The translations under genes were made by a program, and so were the position numbers. 64,000 nucleotides of DNA from Tortispora ganteri (lineage: Eukaryota): assembly GCA_003707115.1 (NCBI GenBank), contig PPNB01000009.1, positions 1 to 64,000 on the forward strand, read 5' to 3'. Position 1 is the stretch's first letter; each line of letters begins with the position of its first letter. The notes below the pieces were generated by a model that had not been told where the DNA came from, made no database searches, and saw only the letters and a program-made list of their open reading frames with translations. Below, piece after piece: positions 18,393 through 60,342 of the stretch.

Positions 18393-18860
18393 ATGGACTA
18401 TGCCGCATTCAAAGAAGGAATCGACGCATTGGCTTGCGATCGAATTGGTGAAATAGTGCAGTACAAGTTACCGGTTACTTCTGAAGATGTAGTGGCTCTT
18501 AAGTTCGAACAACAGGACGGAGAATGCAGGATTGTGTACTATGTGCTCTATTCTGAAGAGTTTCTTTGTCCAGTAATATACTTTGACGTGTACCTACAAC
18601 GCGACGATGGTTCAATGGAAATAAACAGTGTAGAAACGATACAATATCAGCTAGCGAAATGGTCTACAAACATGCAGGAGAAGCCGGTAATAAGCAGCGG
18701 TATTCACCCGGTCACTTTGCTCTCATCGAGCTTTGTGCACCCATGTATGTCGAGCGAAATGAGCAAAGCCTTTGGTTGGGCTCAGCTAACTGCTCATCAA
18801 CAGATTACACACTGGCTAGAAGTGTATGGATCGGCTGTCGGCCTTAGGCTCTCTTATTGA
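18393..18860 (+). CDS. ATG10: Autophagy E2-like enzyme
   Basis: YSEEFLCPVIYF, HPV...FVHPC catalytic motif, terminal WL..YG..VGL. Confidence 0.8.
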   Translation: MDYAAFKEGIDALACDRIGEIVQYKLPVTSEDVVALKFEQQDGECRIVYYVLYSEEFLCPVIYFDVYLQRDDGSMEINSVETIQYQLAKWSTNMQEKPVISSGIHPVTLLSSSFVHPCMSSEMSKAFGWAQLTAHQQITHWLEVYGSAVGLRLSY

Positions 18861-20187
18861 GCAGTCTCAGGCCTTTCACCACAACAGCAATAGAAGCACC
18901 CGCTAACACTGTATTCACGACGGCGCTCAGGATCTTGGTGTGCAGTTTCTCTGTACTGTAAGCTAGTGAGTACGGTATATCCGGTCGAAAAGTGACCATG
19001 GTGTAAAGTCTGAGCCATCTATCTTTTAGAACTCTTTCCAAAACCCGTTCCAGCGAGCGTCGGACAAGAAAATGCCAGTCTTGGACACCGCGCCGCATCT
19101 CATCGTAATTCGCCATTGAAAGGTCGCATATAGCAACCAGATCTTTGTGTCTGCTAGCGGTGTATAAATCATATCCGTCTTTCAGTGATTTTTTCGTCTC
19201 GAGAATGTGCATAAGAACCTTGACGTCTTCAAATCCGGCGTTCATTCCTTGCCCGTAAAACGGCACCTGCGCGTGTGAGGCGTCACCAATAATGATGCCT
19301 TTACCACTGTGGTTGTAAGGTGTGCACTTTATGCTCACTAGCGATCCTCGCGGATAATTGTGGTAAATGTATTTCAGTCTAGCTTCGCCTACCAGGCTCA
19401 CGGCATCCGGGAAGTTTGTAGAAAAGAAACTCATAAACGAGTCCTCCGTATTGAGTTCGTCAAAAACAGATGCAGGCGCAAATAGAGTGGCTGTGAATGA
19501 CTTGTCAGCGTTAGGTAAAGCAATGAGCATGAAATCGCCCCTTGGCCAGATATGTAATCTGTTGGGGTGTAGCATGAAATCATTGGATTCGGACGCAGGT
19601 ATAGACAATTCGAGATACATATGAGGGATATATATCTGCTGAAAATTCATTCTTTCGGCTCGCATTATATGATTTCTCACAGTCGAGAAAGTTCCATCAG
19701 CCCCGATAACAGAGGTAAAGCCCCCAATATTGCAAAATTCTTCGCCGCACTGAAAATTCAGTTCCATCAAACTCCAGTCGATTCGTTTCAATTTATGATT
19801 AAATTTCACTGTAACTCCTGTTTTTTCAAGCTCATCTAACAATAAACCATTCAACAGAGTTCGGTCAATGGAATTTATACTCTCACCGTACAAGCCATAA
19901 GGCTGGTAGGCCTTCTTTCCATCAAGGGAGTGGATCAACCGTCCTGACATTGGAATCATGTGTTTTGCAATCGACTTGAGAGCATCTGGTGCTATTTCAG
20001 CTAGTGTCGAAATTCCTCTTGCTGAGATAGCCAAATTGATAGATCGACGTCCTTCAAGCGCAGTTTCATCTACTCTGAGATCACTTCTGGCTTCAAACAC
20101 TACAACTTCATATCCTAGCTTTGTAAAAGCCAATGCTGCGACTGATCCCACTAGTCCGGCACCCACAATTGCAATCTTTTCGCTCAT
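18844..20187 (-). CDS. BNA4: Kynurenine 3-monooxygenase
   Basis: GAGLVG, RSINLAISARG, LHIWPR, GDASHAQVPFYGQGMN. Confidence 0.96.
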   Translation of the reverse strand: MSEKIAIVGAGLVGSVAALAFTKLGYEVVVFEARSDLRVDETALEGRRSINLAISARGISTLAEIAPDALKSIAKHMIPMSGRLIHSLDGKKAYQPYGLYGESINSIDRTLLNGLLLDELEKTGVTVKFNHKLKRIDWSLMELNFQCGEEFCNIGGFTSVIGADGTFSTVRNHIMRAERMNFQQIYIPHMYLELSIPASESNDFMLHPNRLHIWPRGDFMLIALPNADKSFTATLFAPASVFDELNTEDSFMSFFSTNFPDAVSLVGEARLKYIYHNYPRGSLVSIKCTPYNHSGKGIIIGDASHAQVPFYGQGMNAGFEDVKVLMHILETKKSLKDGYDLYTASRHKDLVAICDLSMANYDEMRRGVQDWHFLVRRSLERVLERVLKDRWLRLYTMVTFRPDIPYSLAYSTEKLHTKILSAVVNTVLAGASIAVVVKGLRLLNKRA

Positions 20188-20505: not shown

Positions 20506-20602
20506 TGTCATATGATGTTATTTTGCTGTGCACCAGTCGGAAAGACGGTTTACTCGCTGTCAAATGAAGTGAAATTCCAACCTTTAAGCACTACTGATGA
20601 CA
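20506..20602 (+). ncRNA. Box C/D snoRNA, snR40-like
   Basis: Terminal stem TGTCA/TGACA; box C ATGATGT 20512-18; guide GCTGTGCACCAG 20525-36 complementary to 18S rRNA UGGUGCAUGGC; D' CGGA; C' ATGAAGT; box D CTGA 20594-97. Confidence 0.8.
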
Positions 20603-20707: not shown

Positions 20708-22231
20708 CTATTGTAGTTGTCGTAACTTCGTTAATAACTGTTCCATTTCCCCTTTACGCGCTTCAACCAACTCTCTTTGTAAAGCCGAATCTAAATGGAT
20801 CCACATAGCTTTGAGCATGCCAGACACATGTTTTCCTGAAACATGAGTCAGAACGGGTAGAAAATCAACTTCCGAACTTTTCATTTCTAGCGCCCATAAC
20901 GCGGTTGTACTCAAAAGGTAAGCTTCTGTGGTTCTCTTCTCTTGAGAAAGCTTTTCTGCATGTGCTAGTAAGCCAGTTACTTGTTCCTTATTGAACTGTT
21001 TCAGGTCAGACACCGATAATTTGTATTTCTTTTGTAGCGCCCCAGCAAGAGAGCCGAGATCAGAGCCTGTGACTTTGACTATAGGATCTTTAGTTATTCC
21101 AGATAAGATACTTTCTTGCAAATCTTTAAGTGAGTCAGGAAGTGATATAGCAGCCCAGCATGAAATTAGCAGTTCAGAGGCTCTTGTTCGTACGAGTCGT
21201 TTCTGTTCTTCAAGTTCGCATGCTTTCCAGGAGCTTGACATTGCATTGTAAGCCCTTTTCACGATCCATCTGTTTTTGCGCAAGCGTTCGCCTATCTCGT
21301 ATGCCAATGCCAAATTGAATTTCCGCTTGTTCTCAAGTTTATAAGTCATGATAGTGGCTTCTACGAGGTCACGGATCTCGATGTCCAGTGAATTCTTGTT
21401 CATGATGTAACCATCCGTCACTTGACAATCAGGAAGGTACGTAGCAATAGAACTGTCCACTTTGAGAGACTCCAGACTCAGAGGAGAGTAAGCAAGTTGA
21501 GCGATTTCCGCTAGTTTTGTATTAGAAATGATGCAACTATCTAGAACCTTAGAATCAGAGATACTATGTGGGTCTATAGTTTGCATTTTGGCTAGCGGCA
21601 CAATGCCAGTCGACCTTAATTCTGCAACTATGCTGTTTCTCTGGTCGTCAATAGACACTAGAGGTTTGTAAATGTTTCCAAGGATCTTGAACCCGTTCCG
21701 TCGCGCAATAATTGCATCAATATCAGAGAGAGTTAGCGGTTCTGTGGCGCTTGTAAGCTTTTCTTGGAGCGATACTGATCGTTTTTCCAGGTACTCGCGC
21801 CCAAAAAGGACAGTAGAGTCAAGTATTACGTCAGCGAGAGAGATGGAAAGATCTTTGACGAAGTTGAGAGGTAGCTGATTATCGGCACTCCATTTGACAA
21901 GTTCGACCGGGTGATCTTGTAGATCTGAAGACAATAAGTGAGCTAGTCGGTCGATTTCATTAGAAGAATACACTACGCCTAAATGAGTAATAGCGCCGCT
22001 GGACGCTATGTAGTCAACAACTACAGTGACAGGCACCTGTAAAGCGGCAGATATTTCGCCAGGCGTTGATTTGTCAACTGAATTGAGGTAATTAGCGATC
22101 AAGCTGTTGATCCATTCACGCGTAGCCAGCCCTCCGTTTACAGCGAACAGTTCGCTATTGTAAGTAAGAAGATCAGAGATGTTGGCTAGATCGGCCTCTG
22201 AGACTGTTGGTTCTCTCCTGAGAAAGTTCAT
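20708..22231 (-). CDS. Uncharacterised protein with a candidate divergent UFL1-like (winged-helix repeat) N-terminal region
   Basis: Long ORF with first ATG at 22231. By-eye similarity to the UFL1 N-terminal region (see findings). The CDS is well supported; the family call is tentative. Confidence 0.6.
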   Translation of the reverse strand: [507 protein letters not shown]

Positions 22232-24306: not shown

Positions 24307-25251
24307 TCAAGCCTGAGTGCCCATGAACCCGCTACAGTTTGCGGCGCCACATAAACATTTCAGCGGTTCTGATCCATGGAACCACGAGAAATTATAATTG
24401 TAGCATATTTCCTCACCATTGCGTATTCCCTGTGCTCCTGCGAATAGACACATATGCGGTTCGTCGTCGATCAGCCAGAGTTCCATCTGCGAGTTGGGAT
24501 CGCACGAATGGTTCGCAAACCGTGCCTCTGATCCGCGCACACTTGCATCAATGTACATATCCTTGTTAATACATAGAATATAAAAATGTGTGCCTTTATT
24601 CGCAAGTAGCCGCTCATTCAGCATAGACTTATTTATTATATCGCCCGTGTACTCAAGAATGAGTTCTCCGGCAGTGTAGTCGCGGATCGCCCGCAGTCCA
24701 TGTCCCTTCTGGCCCGCCATAAATACTTCGTAGCCGCAAGTGTATGCATTGCCCCGTTTTTGTTGTCGGTAAAAATTCTGAATTTGTCGATTAGTACAGT
24801 TATCTGACATACATATCGCGTTAGAGCACTCATACCTCAACGCTCTATTTAGACAGTTTTCAGCACAATCGTTCGTGCACTCACACGTTGAACGCGCCAG
24901 CTGACCCCGCTGTAGCCTTGAACGTATCTCGCCAATGTAAGCGTTCTTATACAATGGCTTCCAGTTCTTCGGCCGCAATTTCTTAATTGCAGGATTGTAG
25001 TATTTCGACGGCAGCTGAAACCTGCCAGGTTGACTCATCTTCCGTAGACCCGCGCCTAAAGGTAACTTGAACGCGAACTTACTGCTCTTGCCTACACAGT
25101 ACACGCCACGATCAACCACTCCAGGCCGATCCCGCACAACGGTCTTAGGCAAACTATTGGTGATTTCATCAATCGCATTTCGCAGTATCTCATTACTGTT
25201 TGCCACGTGACTAAAATTAAAAAACAAAGATATACTATGCCTGACATCCAT
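24307..25251 (-). CDS. Short AWS-SET-postSET histone methyltransferase, ASH1-like
   Basis: AWS CECTNDCAENCLNR, KGHGLR, EYTGDII, RFANHSCDPN, EEICYNYNF, postSET CLCGAANCSG. Confidence 0.85.
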   Translation of the reverse strand: MDVRHSISLFFNFSHVANSNEILRNAIDEITNSLPKTVVRDRPGVVDRGVYCVGKSSKFAFKLPLGAGLRKMSQPGRFQLPSKYYNPAIKKLRPKNWKPLYKNAYIGEIRSRLQRGQLARSTCECTNDCAENCLNRALRYECSNAICMSDNCTNRQIQNFYRQQKRGNAYTCGYEVFMAGQKGHGLRAIRDYTAGELILEYTGDIINKSMLNERLLANKGTHFYILCINKDMYIDASVRGSEARFANHSCDPNSQMELWLIDDEPHMCLFAGAQGIRNGEEICYNYNFSWFHGSEPLKCLCGAANCSGFMGTQA

Positions 25252-28468: not shown

Positions 28469-31069
28469 TTAAAGACGAATCCATACGTGCCTTTCACCTT
28501 CACCAACATTAAGCACTCCCTGTTTAGTGAGTGATTCAATCGAGTCTTCCAGTATTCCGGAAACGCAAGATTCACTCACGATCTGAATAACTCGGCAAAC
28601 ATCGCTTAAATTACCAGAAGAAGATCCAAGCATTAGCTTAGGTGCCTTGTCAAAGGGAATAGCGTCATCTGTAGGGAAAGTCTGGAATAAAACCTGACCA
28701 GGCTTCTCCTTATCTGCAATAGAAATATGACCTGAAGTAGATTGTACCATAGGTTTGACTCCAGATTTGGATCCAGACTTCACTTCAGCTTGAGTTTTGG
28801 AAACAGAATTAGATCCAGGTTTTACATCCGGTTTAGCGCCAGTTTTGCCGTTTCTGTCACTTGATCCCGATTTAGAGTCGGAATCGCTTGATCCAGCATT
28901 AGCTTTCGCACTGGCAGTTACTTTGACACCTGAACGAGAACCAGGGACTTTATCACAATCAGGATCGGTACCGGTGTTCATTGCTCCAGATTTTACATCA
29001 GCAGTAGCGCGACCATTAGCATAAGCTTTAGCTCCAGAATGAGCACGAGCATAGGCTTCTGCATCGGCAGCAGCACCAGAACCGGCAACAAAATTAGTGC
29101 TAGCATAAGCATTAGCATTAGCATTAGCATTAGCATTAGCATTAGCATTAGCATTAGCATTAGCATTAGCATTAGCATTAGCATTAGCATTAGCATTAGC
29201 ATTAGCATTAGCATTAGCATTAGCATTAGCATTAGCATTAGCATTAGCATTAGCGTTAGCATTAGCAGAAAGATAAGAAGCAGCTGTGGCATCAGTATTG
29301 GCACGAGCATCACCTTTGGCTGTGGCATAAGCCTCAGCATACGCTTCCGCAACGGCTTCTTGAGGCTGAGTCAATTCATCAATAACAGAATCAGTCGTAC
29401 AGTCAATAATATTTGAGGCGGTGGGTACTGCAGGAACAGTCCAGTCACTGAAACTGTAGCTTGGTCGAGATTGGATAACCAATGTGGTGCTCTCGTGAAA
29501 TCCTTGCGTAGTTTTAACAGTTTCAGCAGAGGTAACGTCTTCAGTAATGATTGCTTGCTCAGTAGTGTCAGTAGTTGTAGTTGCAGGCACATAAGAAGTT
29601 TTAGGAGCCGCATGAGAAGTAGGACGATGTCCGGTAATGCTATTGACTTGAGTTCTATGAACCATGGTAGTTCTAGTAGGGGTAGTAGTGATGGTTTGCG
29701 CAGGTTGAGTAAAGACACTGGTATGGGGAAGTGTACTGTCTTCAGTGTACTCATTATCGCAATCAGGGCGATTTGCACAATCAGTAGCATATTCAGGACA
29801 AGGATCAGCGGTCGGTTTAGCGGGTGTACCATGTTGAATACCATCAGTAAGCGCGGCAATAATGGTCTCGCTGGGCGCTTCTTTGGGTAGTTGCATGCTA
29901 TCACCAATGATGCCGCCATCAAGGTCAGGTTCGTCGTAGTGAAGTTCTTCTACCACATCTTGTTCATTCAAGTTAGTTTCATCATGACCTTCTTCTTCTT
30001 CACAGTCTTCTTCAAGCGGAGTATTTTCTGCCTGATCAGGAGACGTAGCAGAACCAGTGTTGGGGCCACTCACATAGTTAGCAGGCAAACATTCCTCTCT
30101 GATAGGTCCAACTTCATTGATATAGACTTGACCGTGAAGAATAGATCCATCAACGAGAGGAATGACAACACAACAAGACTCATAAGAATTTTGCAGCAGG
30201 AACTCACTCAGTTTCTCGGCGTATTTTTCAACACTAATAGCGGGGACGATGTTAGACGAGACTTGATTCTCTGTGAGTTTGAAACGGAAAATCATTTTGC
30301 CAATAGTCATAGAGTATCCGTCGGTGTCACGTCTAGTGATGTTCTGTTGCATAGTATCTTCAGTGTAGTGGATAACGACCTCACCAAATCCAGTATCGAT
30401 ATCGAAATCCATAGAAACACCAAATGGTACATGAGGAACGATATTACTATGGTCAGCCAGAATAGAATCAAGAATAGAGTCGTCAGTGGTACGACGGTAA
30501 ATGCTATCGTCGGTACGGACAATAGAGTCGCCTCTCCAGTCGTACTCGTGGGCAAACTGGAGGTTGCCAGAAATAAGGTCTCGCTTAGACATCTTGAAGT
30601 TGAACAACTTGACGGCGCTCGTTGCAAGTGTGAGAAGAGAAACGACGGCCAGTCCTCCAATACATCCAGGAGGGCCTAATGCTTGAGAAGAGCACAGAGC
30701 GACAGTACCGGCTTTTGCAAACTGCGTGATTGAGGATAAAGGGGCAACTAGGGCGTTAGGAGAGGCTTGAGTAGTAATGTCTTTGCCGGTGAAGAGATCA
30801 ATACCATCGCGAATGAATTTCTCGCTGAGACGGAACTGACGCTGAATGAATTCTTTCTCTTCCATGGAAGTAGCAGAAACCTCAAGTCCGTCGAACATGT
30901 CAGGAGACACCTGGACCAATTTGCGTCCGCCTTGGCTGAAAACCTTTGAGTTCAGTACGAGATCAATAACATCAGCAGAAGGGTTGTTCAAGAAATTAAC
31001 CACGTCGGCAAATCCGCCGAGGATAGTTTTAGCGGTGTCAATAGCGGATTCGAGGAAATTGCCGAACAT
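28469..31069 (-). CDS. Orphan 866-aa protein: toxin-like N-domain, acidic linker, Thr-rich stalk, (AN)n repeat
   Basis: Long ORF with TATATAAA at 31131-38 upstream; no housekeeping family recognised. Confidence 0.8.
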   Translation of the reverse strand: MFGNFLESAIDTAKTILGGFADVVNFLNNPSADVIDLVLNSKVFSQGGRKLVQVSPDMFDGLEVSATSMEEKEFIQRQFRLSEKFIRDGIDLFTGKDITTQASPNALVAPLSSITQFAKAGTVALCSSQALGPPGCIGGLAVVSLLTLATSAVKLFNFKMSKRDLISGNLQFAHEYDWRGDSIVRTDDSIYRRTTDDSILDSILADHSNIVPHVPFGVSMDFDIDTGFGEVVIHYTEDTMQQNITRRDTDGYSMTIGKMIFRFKLTENQVSSNIVPAISVEKYAEKLSEFLLQNSYESCCVVIPLVDGSILHGQVYINEVGPIREECLPANYVSGPNTGSATSPDQAENTPLEEDCEEEEGHDETNLNEQDVVEELHYDEPDLDGGIIGDSMQLPKEAPSETIIAALTDGIQHGTPAKPTADPCPEYATDCANRPDCDNEYTEDSTLPHTSVFTQPAQTITTTPTRTTMVHRTQVNSITGHRPTSHAAPKTSYVPATTTTDTTEQAIITEDVTSAETVKTTQGFHESTTLVIQSRPSYSFSDWTVPAVPTASNIIDCTTDSVIDELTQPQEAVAEAYAEAYATAKGDARANTDATAASYLSANANANANANANANANANANANANANANANANANANANANANANANANANANAYASTNFVAGSGAAADAEAYARAHSGAKAYANGRATADVKSGAMNTGTDPDCDKVPGSRSGVKVTASAKANAGSSDSDSKSGSSDRNGKTGAKPDVKPGSNSVSKTQAEVKSGSKSGVKPMVQSTSGHISIADKEKPGQVLFQTFPTDDAIPFDKAPKLMLGSSSGNLSDVCRVIQIVSESCVSGILEDSIESLTKQGVLNVGEGERHVWIRL
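29108..29266. repeat. Coding hexanucleotide tandem repeat (AGCATT)n, about 26 units, encoding Ala-Asn on the minus strand
   Basis: 24 perfect units 29108-29251, then AGCGTT, AGCATT, AGC. Confidence 0.98.
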
Positions 31070-44367: not shown

Positions 44368-45279
44368 ATGTCGTTCATCGCTACATTAACGAAGCTAGCT
44401 ATCTACGGCGCTGCATTTGTAGCCGTGACTTTATCGAGTAGTCTTGCTGTTTTATATTTGACGCAGAACTACATAATCTACATGAACAACTTCCCCAAAG
44501 ATGCGCGATCTACCGTTTCTCGTCCAAGCGTCTACGGCCTGCCATACGAAGACGTTGTTTTTGTAACAGAGGACAAAATCGCAATCTTCTCATATTTTAT
44601 ATACAATCCAAAATCTCCCTCTTCTCACACTGTCGTTATGTGTCATGGCAATGCTGGAAATATGGGTACCCGTATACCGCTGGCTAGTCAGTTCTACGAG
44701 ATGGGTTATAACGTGGTACTTTGGTCATATCGCGGATATGGCGCCAACACCGGCCGACCGAGCGAGAAAGGTATAAAGTTGGACGTTGCTGCCCTTCTTG
44801 CGGCTTTGAAAGAGCATCAGGTACTGTCGAAGACGCAATTCATCCTTTACGGCCAGAGCATTGGCGGGGCCGTCGCATGCTACATGGCCTCAGTTGAGCC
44901 TAACATGTTCCGCGCCATTGTCCTTGAAAACACCTTTTTGTCCATACAAGACATGATCCCCGCTACGTTCCCGTTGTTGTCAAGATTCTCGTACCTATGC
45001 CACGAGAAGTGGAATTCTAAGGCGCTTGTCCCGTCCTTCAAGATTCCTGCACTATTCTTAGCCGGTATGAAAGACGAAATTGTGCCTCCCGACCAAACCC
45101 GTGCATTATTCGATTTATGCGGTTCCCCCTACAAGTCCTTCTACGGGTTCCCGGGATTTGGCCACAACGATACCTGCACGAGCGATGACTACTGGGAAAA
45201 GATCGATAAGTTCCTCAAGGAATCCCTTTCGCTGCCATCTGACGGGCCCAACGAAAAGACGGCAGCTATTGCTGCCTAG
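44368..45279 (+). CDS. Bem46/ABHD13 alpha/beta hydrolase
   Basis: HGNAGNMG, YRGYG, GQSIGG nucleophile, ENTF, HNDT. Confidence 0.92.
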   Translation: MSFIATLTKLAIYGAAFVAVTLSSSLAVLYLTQNYIIYMNNFPKDARSTVSRPSVYGLPYEDVVFVTEDKIAIFSYFIYNPKSPSSHTVVMCHGNAGNMGTRIPLASQFYEMGYNVVLWSYRGYGANTGRPSEKGIKLDVAALLAALKEHQVLSKTQFILYGQSIGGAVACYMASVEPNMFRAIVLENTFLSIQDMIPATFPLLSRFSYLCHEKWNSKALVPSFKIPALFLAGMKDEIVPPDQTRALFDLCGSPYKSFYGFPGFGHNDTCTSDDYWEKIDKFLKESLSLPSDGPNEKTAAIAA

Positions 45280-45418
45280 ATGGAGATTGTCACTTATTTA
45301 CTTGTTTCATGGACTTTATTTGACGTACATAATGATGCCTCTGCACTACGCATCACTACTGCCCATGCACGTCTCTTCGAGTCGTCTTCCCAACTTAGAT
45401 TTTCATTGCGCACCCAAA

Positions 45419-48169
45419 ATGCCTTCAATCGAACAGGACCACGATCCTCCTTCTGCAAACGCTACTGCTTCGAATAAAGGTGGCAAAAATAAACAGAGGA
45501 AATCTCAAAATGACGCTAAACGGAATAAATTACGCAAAAAGCAGTTCGGCTCTAAACTATCCTCAGCCAAAGATGCCTCAAAGGGTTCTTCAAATATCAA
45601 AGTCGGGGATCTAGACGCAGACTTGTCCTACATTAAGTCATTTGGAGTTACCGACGATAACATTATTATTAATATCATTAGAGATATCGCTAATAGCGAT
45701 TATGACTGCTTGATATGCTATGATTCCGTAACTCCTCGGTCTAAAGTGTGGGCATGCGACGTTTGTTCTCATGTATTTCATCTTTCTTGTGTACAAAAGT
45801 GGGCATCGAAAACCATCCAAAACAACTCTACCGCTAATAATACTGCATCGAAATGGCGCTGTCCTGGCTGTCAGACAGTTCGTGAGTCTGTACCAAAGCT
45901 ATACAAATGCTGGTGTGGAAAAGTTACCTCTCCACACGTCAAATCTAGCGCCATACCGCACAGCTGCAGCAAGCCATGTGGAGTCAAACATACTGAATGT
46001 AACCATGAATGCCATATTATTTGTCACCCGGGTCCGCACCCTCCCTGCCAGGAAACAGGCATCACTACGCGGTGTTTCTGTGGCAAACGGGCAAAGCAAG
46101 ACCGCTGTGCTGACATAGATTATAGCGGCTGGTCGTGCGAAGAAATATGCAACGAAACAATGCCTTGCGGAATTCATGTGTGTCAGAAAACTTGCCATTC
46201 TGGTTTGTGTGGACCGTGTCAGTCGATAATTGACCTGTTCTGCTACTGCGGAAAGGAAGTTTACCAACGCAAATGTTCTGAGCGGGTCGAATTCAAACGA
46301 AGCGTTGTGCAACTAGGCGCAGAGGTCCGCGTATGGGACGGAGCTGTACAGTGTCATCATATATGCAATAGGCCGTACGATTGTGGTGTCCATTTCTGCC
46401 CGAAGCCTTGCCACCCACAGACTATGCGCGCCTCGCATTGCCCCTTCAGCCCAGACGTAGCCACTACATGCCCCTGTAAGAAGAGAAAAGTTTCGGAAAT
46501 TCTAGGCCGAGAGCGCGAATCATGTTCTGAACCTATCCCGACATGCGGCCAGCAATGCGAAAAGCCTTTACTTTGCGGTCATACATGTGAACTCAGTTGC
46601 CACGAAGGACCTTGCAGTCCATGTGAGAAATCAGTGTGGAAAGAATGTGTATGCGGTTACTCGTCTGTTGAAGTTATATGTGGCCAAATGCCTGTGGGCA
46701 TTAAACCGACTTGCCAGAGAGTCTGCCAGGCTCTGCTTAATTGTCAAACACATAAATGCGGCCAGACCTGCTGCAGTGGTGAAAGACACTGGGCCAAACG
46801 CACGGCTTCGAGGCGACGCCGTGGCTTTAATAGCGATGCAGCGAGTATTGAACCTGAGCACATATGTACGCGAGTGTGCGATAAGCTCTTACCGTGCGGG
46901 AATCATCGCTGTACCAATATCTGCCACAGAGGGCCTTGTCCGCCTTGTTTGGAGGCTATTTTTGAGGAAATTGAATGCAACTGCGGGCGCACGCGGTTGA
47001 TGCCCCCTCAACCTTGTGGCACAAAACCTCCACACTGTAATTACAATTGCCAGAGACGTCCACCATGTGGGCACCCGCCTGTTCCTCATAACTGTCATTT
47101 AGAAGACGAGCAATGTCCGCCGTGTCCGCACCTGGTCACGAAGAGATGTCTTTGCGGGAAAGCTATGGTCAAAAATCAGGCTTGCTCGAAAACGAGAGTC
47201 TTCTGTGGCGTGGTGTGCGGCAAACCTCTGCCTTGTGGGTTACATAAATGCACAGCCGTATGTCACGAAGCCGGGGAATGCCCACCGTGTACTAATGCCT
47301 GTGGAAAACTACGTCCATGTGGACATAAGGACATGACGCGATGTCATGCGCCATTCGAATGTAATACTCGTATCCCATGTCGGTCACAAATGAAGACGAG
47401 TTGCGAATGTGGAGAGAAAACTGCGGTGGTTCAATGCAACAGCACGAAAGACGATCCTTATCCGAATCATATACTGAAATGCGATGAGGAATGTCTTAAA
47501 TTACAACGAGACAGACGATTAGCTCAGGCACTGAATGTGAATTTCGCTCAAAGAAATGATTCACACAGCTCGATCTCTGTGAGATCTCCATTTTCTGAAT
47601 ACCTCTTAGATTACTACAGTGAAGGCAAATCAGAGAGAAGTTTCTGCGATGGAGTTGAAAACACCATGACAGAGTTTGTTTCTCGCTCTTCAGCAAAACA
47701 TTACTCGTTCCCTGCGATGCCTCAACAAAGTCGCAGAATAGTGCACGAGTTTGCTAGCGCATTTGGATGTGACAGTATTGCCCATGATCCAGAGCCCAAA
47801 AGGAATATAGTCGTCTATAAAACGCTGACTACAAGAACTCCGCCCGTCAAGTTACGTGATGTATGGCTAGATCAGGCAAAGAAAAGCAGCGCTGAGCAGC
47901 CGGCGTCCATCACTGCTACACCAAAGAGATCGATGCAGGCTGCTGATGCGACTGAGTGGGATGCTGATTTCTGTTGGGACACAGACGATGACAACGAAGA
48001 TTCTGCGGTTCTGTCGTTAATTGAGAAAACAGCGAAATTTGTGACGCTGAGTGTCGAAATGGGTATCGATCGAGACGTATTAAGAAGCGTATGCAAGAAC
48101 CATGGGTTTGTGTGGATAGAGACTATAGGGAGCCCGGAGATCACAATTTACAGGATAGAGGAGCCATAG
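45419..48169 (+). CDS. FAP1: NF-X1-type zinc finger protein with RING and R3H domains
   Basis: RING CLIC...HLSC...WRCPGC, repeated CHxGPC NF-X1 fingers, R3H FPAM...RRIVHE...DPEPKR. Start uncertain (in-frame ATGs 45332-45419). Confidence 0.9.
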   Translation: MPSIEQDHDPPSANATASNKGGKNKQRKSQNDAKRNKLRKKQFGSKLSSAKDASKGSSNIKVGDLDADLSYIKSFGVTDDNIIINIIRDIANSDYDCLICYDSVTPRSKVWACDVCSHVFHLSCVQKWASKTIQNNSTANNTASKWRCPGCQTVRESVPKLYKCWCGKVTSPHVKSSAIPHSCSKPCGVKHTECNHECHIICHPGPHPPCQETGITTRCFCGKRAKQDRCADIDYSGWSCEEICNETMPCGIHVCQKTCHSGLCGPCQSIIDLFCYCGKEVYQRKCSERVEFKRSVVQLGAEVRVWDGAVQCHHICNRPYDCGVHFCPKPCHPQTMRASHCPFSPDVATTCPCKKRKVSEILGRERESCSEPIPTCGQQCEKPLLCGHTCELSCHEGPCSPCEKSVWKECVCGYSSVEVICGQMPVGIKPTCQRVCQALLNCQTHKCGQTCCSGERHWAKRTASRRRRGFNSDAASIEPEHICTRVCDKLLPCGNHRCTNICHRGPCPPCLEAIFEEIECNCGRTRLMPPQPCGTKPPHCNYNCQRRPPCGHPPVPHNCHLEDEQCPPCPHLVTKRCLCGKAMVKNQACSKTRVFCGVVCGKPLPCGLHKCTAVCHEAGECPPCTNACGKLRPCGHKDMTRCHAPFECNTRIPCRSQMKTSCECGEKTAVVQCNSTKDDPYPNHILKCDEECLKLQRDRRLAQALNVNFAQRNDSHSSISVRSPFSEYLLDYYSEGKSERSFCDGVENTMTEFVSRSSAKHYSFPAMPQQSRRIVHEFASAFGCDSIAHDPEPKRNIVVYKTLTTRTPPVKLRDVWLDQAKKSSAEQPASITATPKRSMQAADATEWDADFCWDTDDDNEDSAVLSLIEKTAKFVTLSVEMGIDRDVLRSVCKNHGFVWIETIGSPEITIYRIEEP

Positions 48170-55058: not shown

Positions 55059-57488
55059 ATGCCGTCGTCCAGCCCACAATTATTCCTGGACTACCCAGAC
55101 AAGACGAAAACAGCACAGCTAGAGTTTACACCTATATCTCAATGTATATACTTTTCTAAGAATCTCGGGTTCTCTGGCCAACGGGAGCTTATGACTTGCG
55201 ACTGTCCGCCGGACGTCCGCCGCGGGACTAACCACGCTTGTGGTGACGACTCTGACTGCATAAATAGACTCACATCAATCGAATGTATTGGTGATTCATG
55301 CGGCTGTGGTGACAACTGCCAGAATCGTAGGTTCCAGAACCGCCAGTACGCCGCTGTGTCAGTCATCCAGACAGAGAAAAAGGGCTACGGTCTCCGCGCA
55401 GACGCTCCGATAGACCGCGGCGCCTTCATATACGAGTACATTGGTGATGTCATCGACGAGAACAGATTTCGCAAAAGAACTCAGAATTATGCAAAGGATG
55501 GTATAGTGCATTTCTACTTCATGATGCTTCAGCAGGGCGAGTTCATAGATGCAACCCAGAAGGGCGGCCTAGCACGTTACTGCAACCACTCCTGCAACCC
55601 TAACGCATATGTAGATAAATGGGTTGTGGGCGAAAAACTCAGAATGGGAATATTTGCAAAACGCGATATCATCCCAGGCGAAGAAATTACCTTCGATTAC
55701 AATGTAGATCGCTACGGTGCTGATCCACAGCCCTGCTACTGCGGTGAACCAAACTGTGTCGGCGTTATAGGTGGCAAAACGCAAACTGACGGCGGTCTTT
55801 GCATTCCACTCTCGCAAACAGAGGCACTCGGTCTTCCTGACGATGATGAAGATAGCTGGAATGCCCTACGCAAACCCAGCCCCACCAAGAGGGGCAGGAA
55901 AGCCCGCGATTATACCGACTCTGAAAACTGGTTCGACCCCGAAAAAATTCATACTTACCCCTTGTCCGACGAAGACGTCTCTAAGGTCATGTCTGTTCTG
56001 CTACAGGTCAAAGAAGACTGGCTGGTGCAAAAGCTGCTGAACCGTATCCAGATTACTGCCGATGATTCCATACAGAGAAAGGTAATGAAATTTCACGGGT
56101 ACCAAATGCTTGCCTCAGTCCTTCAGAAGTGGAAAGACGATGTCCCCATCGTTCTCACCGTCTTAAACATTCTAATAAAGTGGCCTACTGTTACGAGAAA
56201 CAAGATATCGAGCTCTCAGATAGAGGAAATAATTCTTCAGTTGTCTAACAGCTCTGAGGACGATGCAGTGCGTAAATTATCAAAGGCACTACTCGAAGAA
56301 TGGAAAGACCTTAAGATGGCATACCGAATACCGCGCAAAAACAAAAATGCTACCTCTGAGTCCGAAACTAATGGATCGGCAAGTGAGTTCAATTCACCAT
56401 CGAGAGCCTTATCAGAAGATCCTCAAAAAGACGACGGCCACAGTTCTTCTAACGAAGAAAATGACGAAGAGGACGAAGAGCTATTAAATTACAATGATGA
56501 TGACGTTGATGAAGCCCTAATTGCCGTTGGAGACGACGAAGAGATGGCCAATATTATCAAACAGTACAGGGAGAAGTATTTGCTGAAAGTACCGGACCCT
56601 CCTCGGGAACCGCCTGGCCCAGAAGATAAGGTGGAGACTGTACCAGGATACTCAGAACGAGGCAAGAAAGGTAAAATGAAAATCAGAAGGCAATTGAGAA
56701 TTGAAAATGAAAAACGATTGCCACCTGGCTGGGCTTTGTCTATTGATGACGAAGGCCGGCTGTATTTTTTCAAAAGAATGAAGCACTCAAGGAACGAGGT
56801 GCCTCAATGGACTCGCCCAGATTTGAAAGTGTCAGAGGCCAAAAGCGTTCAGCGGGATTCTGAGAGTATCCGAGAGCGCGCTGAAAAATCGATTGATGAT
56901 GTACAAGATCGCAGACGTGAAAGAAAACTGAAGGAGTGGGAAGAGCAGCGACGCAAATACATCAAAAAGATGCTAATGGAACAGAAGAAACAAGCTAAGT
57001 TGGCTGCTTCTCAAACTCCTGCTAAGCAGGCATTGGATCTACAAAAGATTATCAGCGAAGCCAGCCAGTTGCAGACGCCTAGTCAACGTCCCGATTCAGC
57101 AAGCGAGAGCCCTAGGGGTGCTTCAAACGATCACAGCGACCGCAAAGGAGACTCAAAGCTAGATGAGACACAAAAAAAACAGAAGGCAGTGATGAAGTTG
57201 TTTGCCAGACAGGTTCCGAACATGATTGCACGATTCGAGGAAGAGCTGGGCCATGACAACTTGAAGGAATGTGCTCGGGAGATCGTGCACACATTGGTAG
57301 CAAAGGAGATGAAAGCAGACAAGCCAGTGCCCGAAAGTTTGAGTGATGAAAAGAAGAAGAAAATTAAAGCTTTTTCGTTGGCATTTATGGAGAAAGTACT
57401 TGCTAAACGTAAGAGGAAACGAGAAGAGAAGGCGAAGAGCCAAAACGGTGATCTGGATCGACACAACAAGTCACAGAAGGTAGAGTGA
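55059..57488 (+). CDS. SET2: H3K36 methyltransferase
   Basis: AWS-SET-postSET (CINR, NHSCNPN, FDYNVDRYG), WW domain LPPGW...PQWTRP, C-terminal SRI-like region. Confidence 0.96.
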   Translation: MPSSSPQLFLDYPDKTKTAQLEFTPISQCIYFSKNLGFSGQRELMTCDCPPDVRRGTNHACGDDSDCINRLTSIECIGDSCGCGDNCQNRRFQNRQYAAVSVIQTEKKGYGLRADAPIDRGAFIYEYIGDVIDENRFRKRTQNYAKDGIVHFYFMMLQQGEFIDATQKGGLARYCNHSCNPNAYVDKWVVGEKLRMGIFAKRDIIPGEEITFDYNVDRYGADPQPCYCGEPNCVGVIGGKTQTDGGLCIPLSQTEALGLPDDDEDSWNALRKPSPTKRGRKARDYTDSENWFDPEKIHTYPLSDEDVSKVMSVLLQVKEDWLVQKLLNRIQITADDSIQRKVMKFHGYQMLASVLQKWKDDVPIVLTVLNILIKWPTVTRNKISSSQIEEIILQLSNSSEDDAVRKLSKALLEEWKDLKMAYRIPRKNKNATSESETNGSASEFNSPSRALSEDPQKDDGHSSSNEENDEEDEELLNYNDDDVDEALIAVGDDEEMANIIKQYREKYLLKVPDPPREPPGPEDKVETVPGYSERGKKGKMKIRRQLRIENEKRLPPGWALSIDDEGRLYFFKRMKHSRNEVPQWTRPDLKVSEAKSVQRDSESIRERAEKSIDDVQDRRRERKLKEWEEQRRKYIKKMLMEQKKQAKLAASQTPAKQALDLQKIISEASQLQTPSQRPDSASESPRGASNDHSDRKGDSKLDETQKKQKAVMKLFARQVPNMIARFEEELGHDNLKECAREIVHTLVAKEMKADKPVPESLSDEKKKKIKAFSLAFMEKVLAKRKRKREEKAKSQNGDLDRHNKSQKVE

Positions 57489-59598: not shown

Positions 59599-60342
59599 TC
59601 AATGCCTGCGGCCTCTTTTTGTGGGTTTCCTGTTCATTCCAGGAATATAAAGGCCACCATGCATGCTTTTACCTATGGTATTAATTTTGAGTCCCCTGTC
59701 CCTGCGTGTGACTGGCTTCTTCTTTGTCGAGGCAATCGGAGCAAACTCTTTGTAGACGCCAGGAGAGGAGTTTTTAGCGACAGACTGGACTAGAGGTCCG
59801 GAAGAGCTCGATTTTGCTAGTATAATTCCTGCATCTTTAGCACGTTCTTCATGTTGTTTCTGGGCCTCTTTGCGGTGCTTATTAATACTTTTCCGTATGT
59901 TCATCGGTATAACATTGTGGCCAGCTTCGTAGTAGGCAAGATCTTTACCGGAGGAATATGATAGACGGTGCTGGAGCGATTTTAGTCTGGTAGTAGAAGA
60001 GTTTTGGGCGAGGATTCGTGATTCAGATATAAGTCGCTGTAGTTCGAGATCGTTTATGAGATTCTGGCTTTCATCGTCTGAATCATGTTCTATATGAGAA
60101 GATAGTACATGATCTGAAGGTTGCTGCTGAATGACAGTGTCCGATAGGTTAGAATAGTCTATAGTTTGTATTTCATCGCTGGATTCATTAGAATCGCTAG
60201 AATCAGATTCAGCGAAGTTGAAAAACGGTATGTTTTGATTCAATAAATCATTTTTATCAGATTGGTCTTCTGTTTTAGTAGAATCTGGTTCTAGAGGCGT
60301 AAATTTTGATTCAAAATATTGTTTGAATGGATCTATGGACAT
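59599..60342 (-). CDS. FAF1: 40S assembly factor Faf1-like
   Basis: NDLELQRLISES, PMNIRK, AKDAGIILA, RDRGLKINTIGK. Confidence 0.7.
   Translation of the reverse strand: MSIDPFKQYFESKFTPLEPDSTKTEDQSDKNDLLNQNIPFFNFAESDSSDSNESSDEIQTIDYSNLSDTVIQQQPSDHVLSSHIEHDSDDESQNLINDLELQRLISESRILAQNSSTTRLKSLQHRLSYSSGKDLAYYEAGHNVIPMNIRKSINKHRKEAQKQHEERAKDAGIILAKSSSSGPLVQSVAKNSSPGVYKEFAPIASTKKKPVTRRDRGLKINTIGKSMHGGLYIPGMNRKPTKRGRRH

Follow-up and report, generated by a model that had tools for sequence, protein, structure and literature searches.

A probable, shrunken homologue of the UFM1 ligase UFL1 in the budding yeast Tortispora ganteri

In this study, we describe a gene of the yeast Tortispora ganteri (Saccharomycotina, Trigonopsidales) whose 507-aa product is very probably a full-length but shrunken homologue of UFL1, a UFM1 ligase that clamps the ribosome in animals and plants, with the UFL1 domain order kept. 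The proposed orthology rests on remote-homology scores, since no intermediate fungal sequence was recovered. The gene lies in a 64,000-nucleotide stretch of contig PPNB01000009.1 (assembly GCA_003707115.1), here called the window, in which a sequence-only reading had pointed it out as a UFL1 candidate. It and its two neighbours are arranged as follows, the neighbours being given for context only:

20508..20599, + strand: snR40-like box C/D snoRNA (snR40 model 32.7 bits, E 1.9e-4; gathering score 50)
20708..22231, - strand: UFL1-like gene; 507 aa, single exon, one copy, no paralogue in the genome
22412..23272, + strand: SER2-type phosphoserine phosphatase (Pfam HAD), divergent from the UFL1-like gene and 180 bp off

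The locus thus agrees with the earlier description of an ORF of about 507 aa between an snoRNA and SER2, the latter being a name that we assign to the HAD phosphatase. The snR40-like element, in which C/D boxes and a terminal stem are visible, is convergent with the UFL1-like gene some 110 bp beyond its stop, and no indel is listed across it in the syntenic contig of run X3. The further description of the ORF as an orphan does not hold in the strict sense, as the window protein (P0001) has an orthologue in Tortispora caseinolytica, the unannotated hypothetical protein CANCADRAFT_107197 (P0002), which has the same length and a common start and is 83% identical without a gap. P0002, for which no Pfam domain is precomputed, was the sole relative obtained from direct protein searches (one of 8000 scored candidates; one match in 1.84 billion). 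Identity between the two proteins differs by domain, reaching 87% in the C-terminal domain compared with 73-75% in the second and fourth winged helices (WH2 and WH4). None of the nine indels listed in the syntenic contig of run X3 (about 90% DNA identity) falls inside the ORF; the indel comparison is that of run X3, runs X2, X4 and X5 being without useful cover. Moreover, the GC content of the ORF (0.434; GC3 0.413) is host-like, both values being spanned by 24 neighbouring genes.

Other genes of the window deserve brief mention. The UFL1-like gene is 1.8 kb away from an ATG10-like E2 gene (18393-18860, + strand, PF03987), which shares 17 bases with the 3' end of a gene for a flavin monooxygenase (18844-20187, - strand) that is presumably kynurenine 3-monooxygenase-like. 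Two proteins combine AWS and SET domains, a full SET2-like one (55059-57488, + strand) and a short one of 314 aa (24307-25251, - strand). At 44368-48169 (+ strand), an alpha/beta hydrolase ORF shares about 95 bases with an NF-X1/R3H ORF on the same strand, probably reflecting an early start call. Two ORFs on the - strand belong to no Pfam family: an 866-aa one (28469-31069) that is rich in Thr in its middle part and has a long repeat of alternating Ala and Asn, and a 247-aa one (59599-60342) with an acidic N-terminal half and a basic C-terminal end.

Single-sequence and family-profile searches lead to UFL1 without crossing the usual thresholds. The best Pfam family of both Tortispora proteins is PF09743 (E3_UFM1_ligase), at 14.3 bits (E 0.032) for P0001 and 17.0 bits (E 0.0049) for P0002, but both fall below its gathering cut-off of 23.2 bits. 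PF23659 (UFL1) and PF25041 (UFL1_C) match neither protein, nor the C-terminal 197 aa, and both are found in the control protein P0004. A phmmer search of the PDB (E<=10) returned eight matches, all of them chance-level glycogen-synthase fusions and none UFL1. Searches seeded with canonical UFL1 (114 and 90 proteins) recovered no named fungal protein besides P0002 and no bridge sequences, and the UFL1 motif is absent from viral contigs. Identity between P0001 and human UFL1 is about 16%.

Comparison with a broad UFL1 family carries the homology. UFL1 sequences were gathered by a metagenome motif scan (117 loci) and a homologue search (114 proteins), giving a profile that recovers human UFL1 in the PDB at E 5e-190. 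Filtering 128 sequences by length and identity left 45 non-redundant ones for an HMM, against which P0002 scored 14.8 bits, with 7.6 as the best of 3000 shuffles, and P0001 scored 3.5 bits, a value beaten by 12 of 3000 shuffles. When both Tortispora sequences were aligned with 57 UFL1s by hhalign, residues 19-241 matched in local mode (probability 91, E 1.1e-6) and the global alignment reached a probability of 96 (E 9.6e-10), with a second, non-overlapping match of residues 388-492 on the UFL1 C-terminal domain (E 1.8e-4). In a first null set, the best of 48 real decoys reached E 1.5e-3 locally and 2.4e-4 globally, the best of 28 column shuffles 0.068 and the reversed control 0.24; in a second, the best of 76 further genome proteins, which we take to be Zuotin-like, reached 3.7e-4 and the best of 107 block shuffles 9.1e-4. 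These decoys are single sequences and the best query is a pair; scored alone, P0002 reaches 52.5, P0001 41.2 and the best decoy, a charged coiled-coil, 38.8. The claimed UFL1 homology therefore stands at the profile-profile level, colinear over the winged helices and the C-terminal domain and above all nulls, but P0001 by itself is borderline (global E 0.036).

Of 11 HMMs built from UFL1 segments, the two that are significant at the expected place cover the start of WH3 and the C-terminal domain. The C-terminal segment matched residues 425-499 at 7.3 and 11.6 bits, with no score as high in 1000 shuffles, and the WH3 segment matched residues 141-210, with as high a score in 1 of 1000 shuffles for P0002 and in 19 of 1000 for P0001. 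For the full protein, the ESM Atlas gave its highest score (0.93) to an unnamed 610-aa Ascomycota cluster, followed by UFL1 clusters at 0.86-0.89; residues 1-290 matched UFL1 first (0.91; 199 shared features), and all ten named matches belong to one family. Recognition was 1378 compared with 2300 for typical known families. Furthermore, a MAFFT alignment with the 57 UFL1s placed the three segments quoted in the sequence-only reading on the corresponding UFL1 segments, of which hhalign agrees on the second and third and skips the first, putting residues 19-78 on WH2. For residues 1-80, where the two registers differ, we adopted the one backed by Pfam and by the structural alignment of WH1 described below. 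The proposal that the N-terminal 200 or so residues are colinear with UFL1 is thus upheld by MAFFT for all three segments and by hhalign for two, but the similarity is not limited to them, residues 425-499, unremarked in that reading, matching independently.

Structure prediction points in the same direction, with differing degrees of independence. An AlphaFold model from the two Tortispora sequences only (family-free) was poor, with a pLDDT of 37, and served only to read off secondary structure and to query Foldseek without circularity. In that search, UFL1 chains took ranks 2, 3, 5, 10 and 20 of 350,542, none of them significant (E 0.46-1.8), and rank 1 is unrelated to UFL1; residues 34-84 of the model form a winged helix that aligns with residues 45-115 of UFL1 in 8ohd_A (Z 5.4, rmsd 2.3, 51 aligned). 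A family-guided model, with 57 UFL1s in the alignment, reached a pLDDT of 71, exceeding 88 over residues 41-150 and 201-280. Its top match is UFL1 (Foldseek E 6e-11; 8b9x, VIA Z 10.5, rmsd 3.7, 146 residues), a partly circular result with no decoy control. The partial winged helix (pWH) and five winged helices are present in the guided model, again with partial circularity, and the family-free model confirms WH1 and the helix boundaries only; the helix state is the same in both at 87% of residues. After UFL1, the next structural match is the C-terminal array of SelB (1lva, 2v9v, 1wsu; Z 8.8-9.3), likewise made of tandem winged helices, but with 6-9% identity to the Tortispora protein, no C-terminal helical domain and no sequence-profile support.

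That the protein might be an unrelated or analogous winged-helix-repeat protein, resembling UFL1 generically without being its orthologue, strikes us as improbable. Such a reading draws on the sub-threshold Pfam scores, the phmmer search without UFL1, the score of P0001 alone barely over that of the coiled-coil decoy, the unnamed cluster that heads the full-protein Atlas search and the fact that WH1 by itself matches many winged helices equally. Nevertheless, Pfam, the Atlas, hhalign and the family-free Foldseek search all point to UFL1, and the UFL1-specific C-terminal domain is also matched in the correct order, which weighs most heavily against a mere repeat of generic winged helices.

Read as a UFL1 homologue, the protein can be divided as follows, pLDDT values being those of the family-guided model:

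22199..22231, - strand: residues 1-11, stub in place of the UFC1-binding helix alpha1; I8 and F15 columns are gaps; pLDDT <50 at residues 1-7
22121..22198, - strand: residues 12-37, pWH; helix 12-24, strands 28-31 and 34-37; pLDDT 63-79
21968..22120, - strand: residues 38-88, WH1; family-free fold of 34-84; pLDDT 90-95
21800..21967, - strand: residues 89-144, WH2; Pfam PF09743 stretch 85-174; pLDDT 91-95
21656..21799, - strand: residues 145-192, WH3, about 20 residues missing; segment HMM 141-210; pLDDT <50 at 178-190
21524..21655, - strand: residues 193-236, WH4, shortened; local hhalign match to residue 241; pLDDT 81-97; aromatic uL1/CDK5RAP3 patch lost
21335..21523, - strand: residues 237-299, WH5, shortened; assigned by model only, pLDDT 88-97 to residue 280; isolated segment not significant
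21002..21334, - strand: residues 300-410, basic helical linker with remnant of the PTC/NEMF loop; pLDDT mostly <50
20711..21001, - strand: residues 411-507, putative UFL1 C-terminal helical domain; H-x-x-G motif H463-G466; hhalign 388-492; below detection by Pfam UFL1_C

The same order of pWH, WH1-5 and a C-terminal domain with H-x-x-G is found in human UFL1 (PF09743, PF23659, PF25041; 8qfc, 8ohd, 9gy4, 8c0d, 8b9x). Human UFL1, however, has 794 aa, whereas the 507-aa Tortispora protein is without alpha1 and the PTC/NEMF loop, has WH3-5 shortened and has the uL1 patch changed.

The shortened or absent UFC1-binding helix had already been suspected from the letters of the sequence, and the family alignment agrees: 12 residues precede the family motif column, compared with at least 22 in 51 of 57 UFL1s, and of the alpha1 residues I8, F15 and Q19 associated with UFC1 binding, the columns of I8 and F15 are empty. 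A 5' exon restoring alpha1 was sought in 240 bases around the start, where no strong donor or branch signal was found, and the in-frame stretch upstream of the start contains no Met and no strong intron signal. For human UFL1, passages of PMC10937380 report that point mutations in alpha1 abolish the complex with UFC1 and impair ribosome UFMylation. The following pWH is assigned by position and model because its isolated segment is not significant, although helix 12-24 is seen in the family-free model too; in the human complex DDRGK1 completes this half winged helix, and the Tortispora protein appears to keep the half domain.

The PTC/NEMF loop columns hold 14 residues, compared with a family median of 88 (range 10-155), and no GGN-type motif is present, the sole GG of the protein being at residue 33. 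According to the consulted text of PMC12047416, the human loop (388-476), which carries the GGN motif and the NEMF-binding strand, is required for ER-RQC. As a separate observation, UFL1 of Blastocystis (P0118) has about ten residues in these columns, hinting that loop loss may recur in diverged UFL1s. The register of residues 300-410 is uncertain because pLDDT is mostly <50. Charge is unevenly distributed, with +7 net over residues 291-360 and -4 to -6 in each winged-helix segment. No membrane segment is present (best 19-residue hydropathy 1.4), and Pfam detects no RING or HECT family in the 507 aa.

Residues that touch the human ribosome have mostly changed. With human numbering transferred through the bird protein P0012, none of ten contact positions in WH1, WH2 and WH4 is identical (N78T, Q83S, G150L, W256S, F260E, N264T, Y266I, E268P, E270A and L275I), the first three of which vary within the UFL1 family too. 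In the WH4 patch, W256, F260, N264 and Y266 correspond to S200, E204, T208 and I210; F260 is found in 50 of 57 UFL1s and N264 in 53 of 57. The basic C-terminal patch retains one of its three residues. In human UFL1, the C-terminal domain occupies the tRNA groove, as described in passages of PMC10937380.

Little of the UFMylation pathway is recognizable in the genome. Profile searches of the 9.6-Mb assembly (1044 contigs) gave no match for UFM1, UFC1, DDRGK or Peptidase_C78, and the same search found the Urm1 control at E 1.7e-28; in the UFSP (Peptidase_C78) search the control also matched nowhere. ThiF gave nine matches in eight genes, four of which were checked for Pfam domains; we take the eight to be UBA1, UBA2, AOS1, UBA3, ULA1, UBA4, ATG7 and TCD, that is, the ordinary yeast set without UBA5. 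The only CDK5RAP3 match (E 0.057) was dismissed as spurious, since it falls in the frame of a GCN2-like kinase. No DDRGK1-like gene was found among the 31 further window ORFs, and the two family-less ones (28469-31069 and 59599-60342), once translated, are unlike DDRGK1. A genome search with PF09743 misses the UFL1-like gene itself, and the genome negatives therefore exclude conserved copies only. The absence of UFM1 and UFC1 is a fair argument because both are normally highly conserved, and that of DDRGK1 and CDK5RAP3 a weak one. The proposed search for UFM1, UBA5, UFC1, DDRGK1, CDK5RAP3 and UFSP thus came back empty, at a sensitivity that passes over diverged copies. The substrate has changed as well: RPL26 has 129 aa with Met, compared with 145 in human and 127 in Saccharomyces cerevisiae, and ends ahead of K132/K134, which lie in the C-terminal tail described for the human protein (PMC7820333). 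The suggestion of a relic UFMylation pathway gains no support: these searches turned up no UFM1, UFC1 or UBA5-like E1, and RPL26 stops short of the UFMylated lysines.

The role that we tentatively propose is that of a diverged, shrunken UFL1 orthologue that has lost E3 activity, is joined by a DDRGK1-like partner and binds the 60S subunit independently of a tag, a role close to the UFM1-independent ribosome/ER clamp offered as the other option in the sequence-only reading; taken as a whole, this chain has slightly less than an even chance of being right, and its steps differ in strength. Descent from UFL1, with the order pWH-WH1-WH2-WH3-WH4-WH5-C-terminal domain kept, is very likely. Granted that descent, UFM1 transfer would with high probability be impossible, because the UFC1-binding helix is gone, the genome searches gave no UFM1, UFC1 or UBA5, and RPL26 is without the target tail. 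The half winged helix would, more likely than not, be completed by a diverged DDRGK1-like partner that may also provide the ER anchor; a kept half domain argues for a protein that complements it, given that human UFL1 is unstable without DDRGK1 (from passages of PMC10952357), and UFL1 and DDRGK1 are often retained jointly after UFM1 loss, according to the text consulted of PMC10183829. Finally, the scaffold may bind free 60S along the side of eL13 and the L1 stalk, place its C-terminal domain within the tRNA groove and act as a tag-independent holding or recycling factor that would be weaker than the human clamp, would not probe the peptidyl transferase centre and would not bind NEMF/Rqc2. In favour of the 60S role, the C-terminal domain has been retained, and it belongs to the regions that differ least between the two yeasts. 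Evidence against a 60S clamp comes from the contact residues (0/10 identical), the basic patch (1/3), the deleted PTC/NEMF loop and the missing membrane anchor, and further from the failure of a weak search to find CDK5RAP3, needed for RPL26 UFMylation in cells (passages of PMC10937380), and DDRGK1.

This erosion of the ribosome contacts keeps alive a reading in which the UFL1-derived scaffold works off the ribosome, with another protein or a nucleic-acid partner, in ER stress, in the nucleus or on RNA, a DDRGK1-like subunit being optional; we regard it as a real though lesser possibility. Such a role would fit the lost ribosome contacts, the missing PTC loop and an RPL26 without its tail, and the closest folds after UFL1 are RNA/DNA-binding winged-helix arrays (SelB: Z 9.3, rmsd 4.1, 113 aligned). 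Additionally, in Asgard archaea UFL1 and DDRGK1 appear to be older than UFM1 (PMC10183829), and roles of UFL1 that are independent of UFMylation are reported. However, the net acidic winged-helix region is a poor fit to nucleic-acid binding, the 60S clamp arm retains all its domains in order, the C-terminal one included, and nothing positive names another partner. A still active ligase, serving a cryptic UFM1 pathway or re-wired to a different ubiquitin-like tag and E2, is a far less plausible outcome: strongly diverged partners can hide where a PF09743 search overlooks the gene itself, and the assembly, in 1044 contigs, may have gaps, yet conservation of UFM1 and UFC1 is usually high, the search that missed them did find Urm1, the eight ThiF genes leave no UBA5, the E2-binding helix is lost and Pfam detects neither a RING nor a HECT family. 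Least credible of all is a decaying remnant without function. Strong divergence, many deleted parts and partners that were not found could be so interpreted, but the T. caseinolytica protein is 83% identical without a gap along all 507 aa, and this, together with an ORF spared by all nine listed indels of run X3, speaks against it.

The tag-free scaffold that we favour has a precedent in general terms. Passages of PMC10183829 describe UFL1 as retained in eukaryotes after UFM1 loss and propose a UFM1-independent function, the same pattern as in Tortispora; that UFL1 can be kept without UFM1 is thus already in print, and we found no published budding-yeast case. The UFL1s of that study were found at BLAST/HMM E<1e-5, according to its text, whereas the Tortispora protein lies below the Pfam cut-off. 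Its text passages name no budding yeast, and its spreadsheet contains none of six fungal genus names, the species-level figure EV1 lying outside this comparison. In the literature searched, which covers few subscription papers, no paper on a budding-yeast or fungal UFL1 was found, and the text consulted of PMC8057497 reports UFMylation genes as lost throughout fungi. How fungi that have no UFMylation handle ribosomes stalled or terminated at the ER, and how UFL1 acts without UFM1, are questions left open in the passages of PMC10183829.

Claims of complete pathway loss in yeasts can, as this case illustrates, depend on search sensitivity. It is conceivable, if rather unlikely, that in budding yeasts and other ascomycetes 60S subunits at the ER are still clamped and recycled by a tag-free UFL1(-DDRGK1) complex that has so far escaped notice. 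If so, the mechanical function would be older than UFM1 conjugation and separable from it, and the 507-aa protein would represent its minimal core. The Tortispora protein, a UFL1 relative that is conserved and encoded once in a yeast amenable to culture, has lost precisely the helix that binds the E2 and the loop for PTC and NEMF; it amounts to a natural deletion mutant and may reveal a scaffold function of UFL1 independent of UFM1 tagging.
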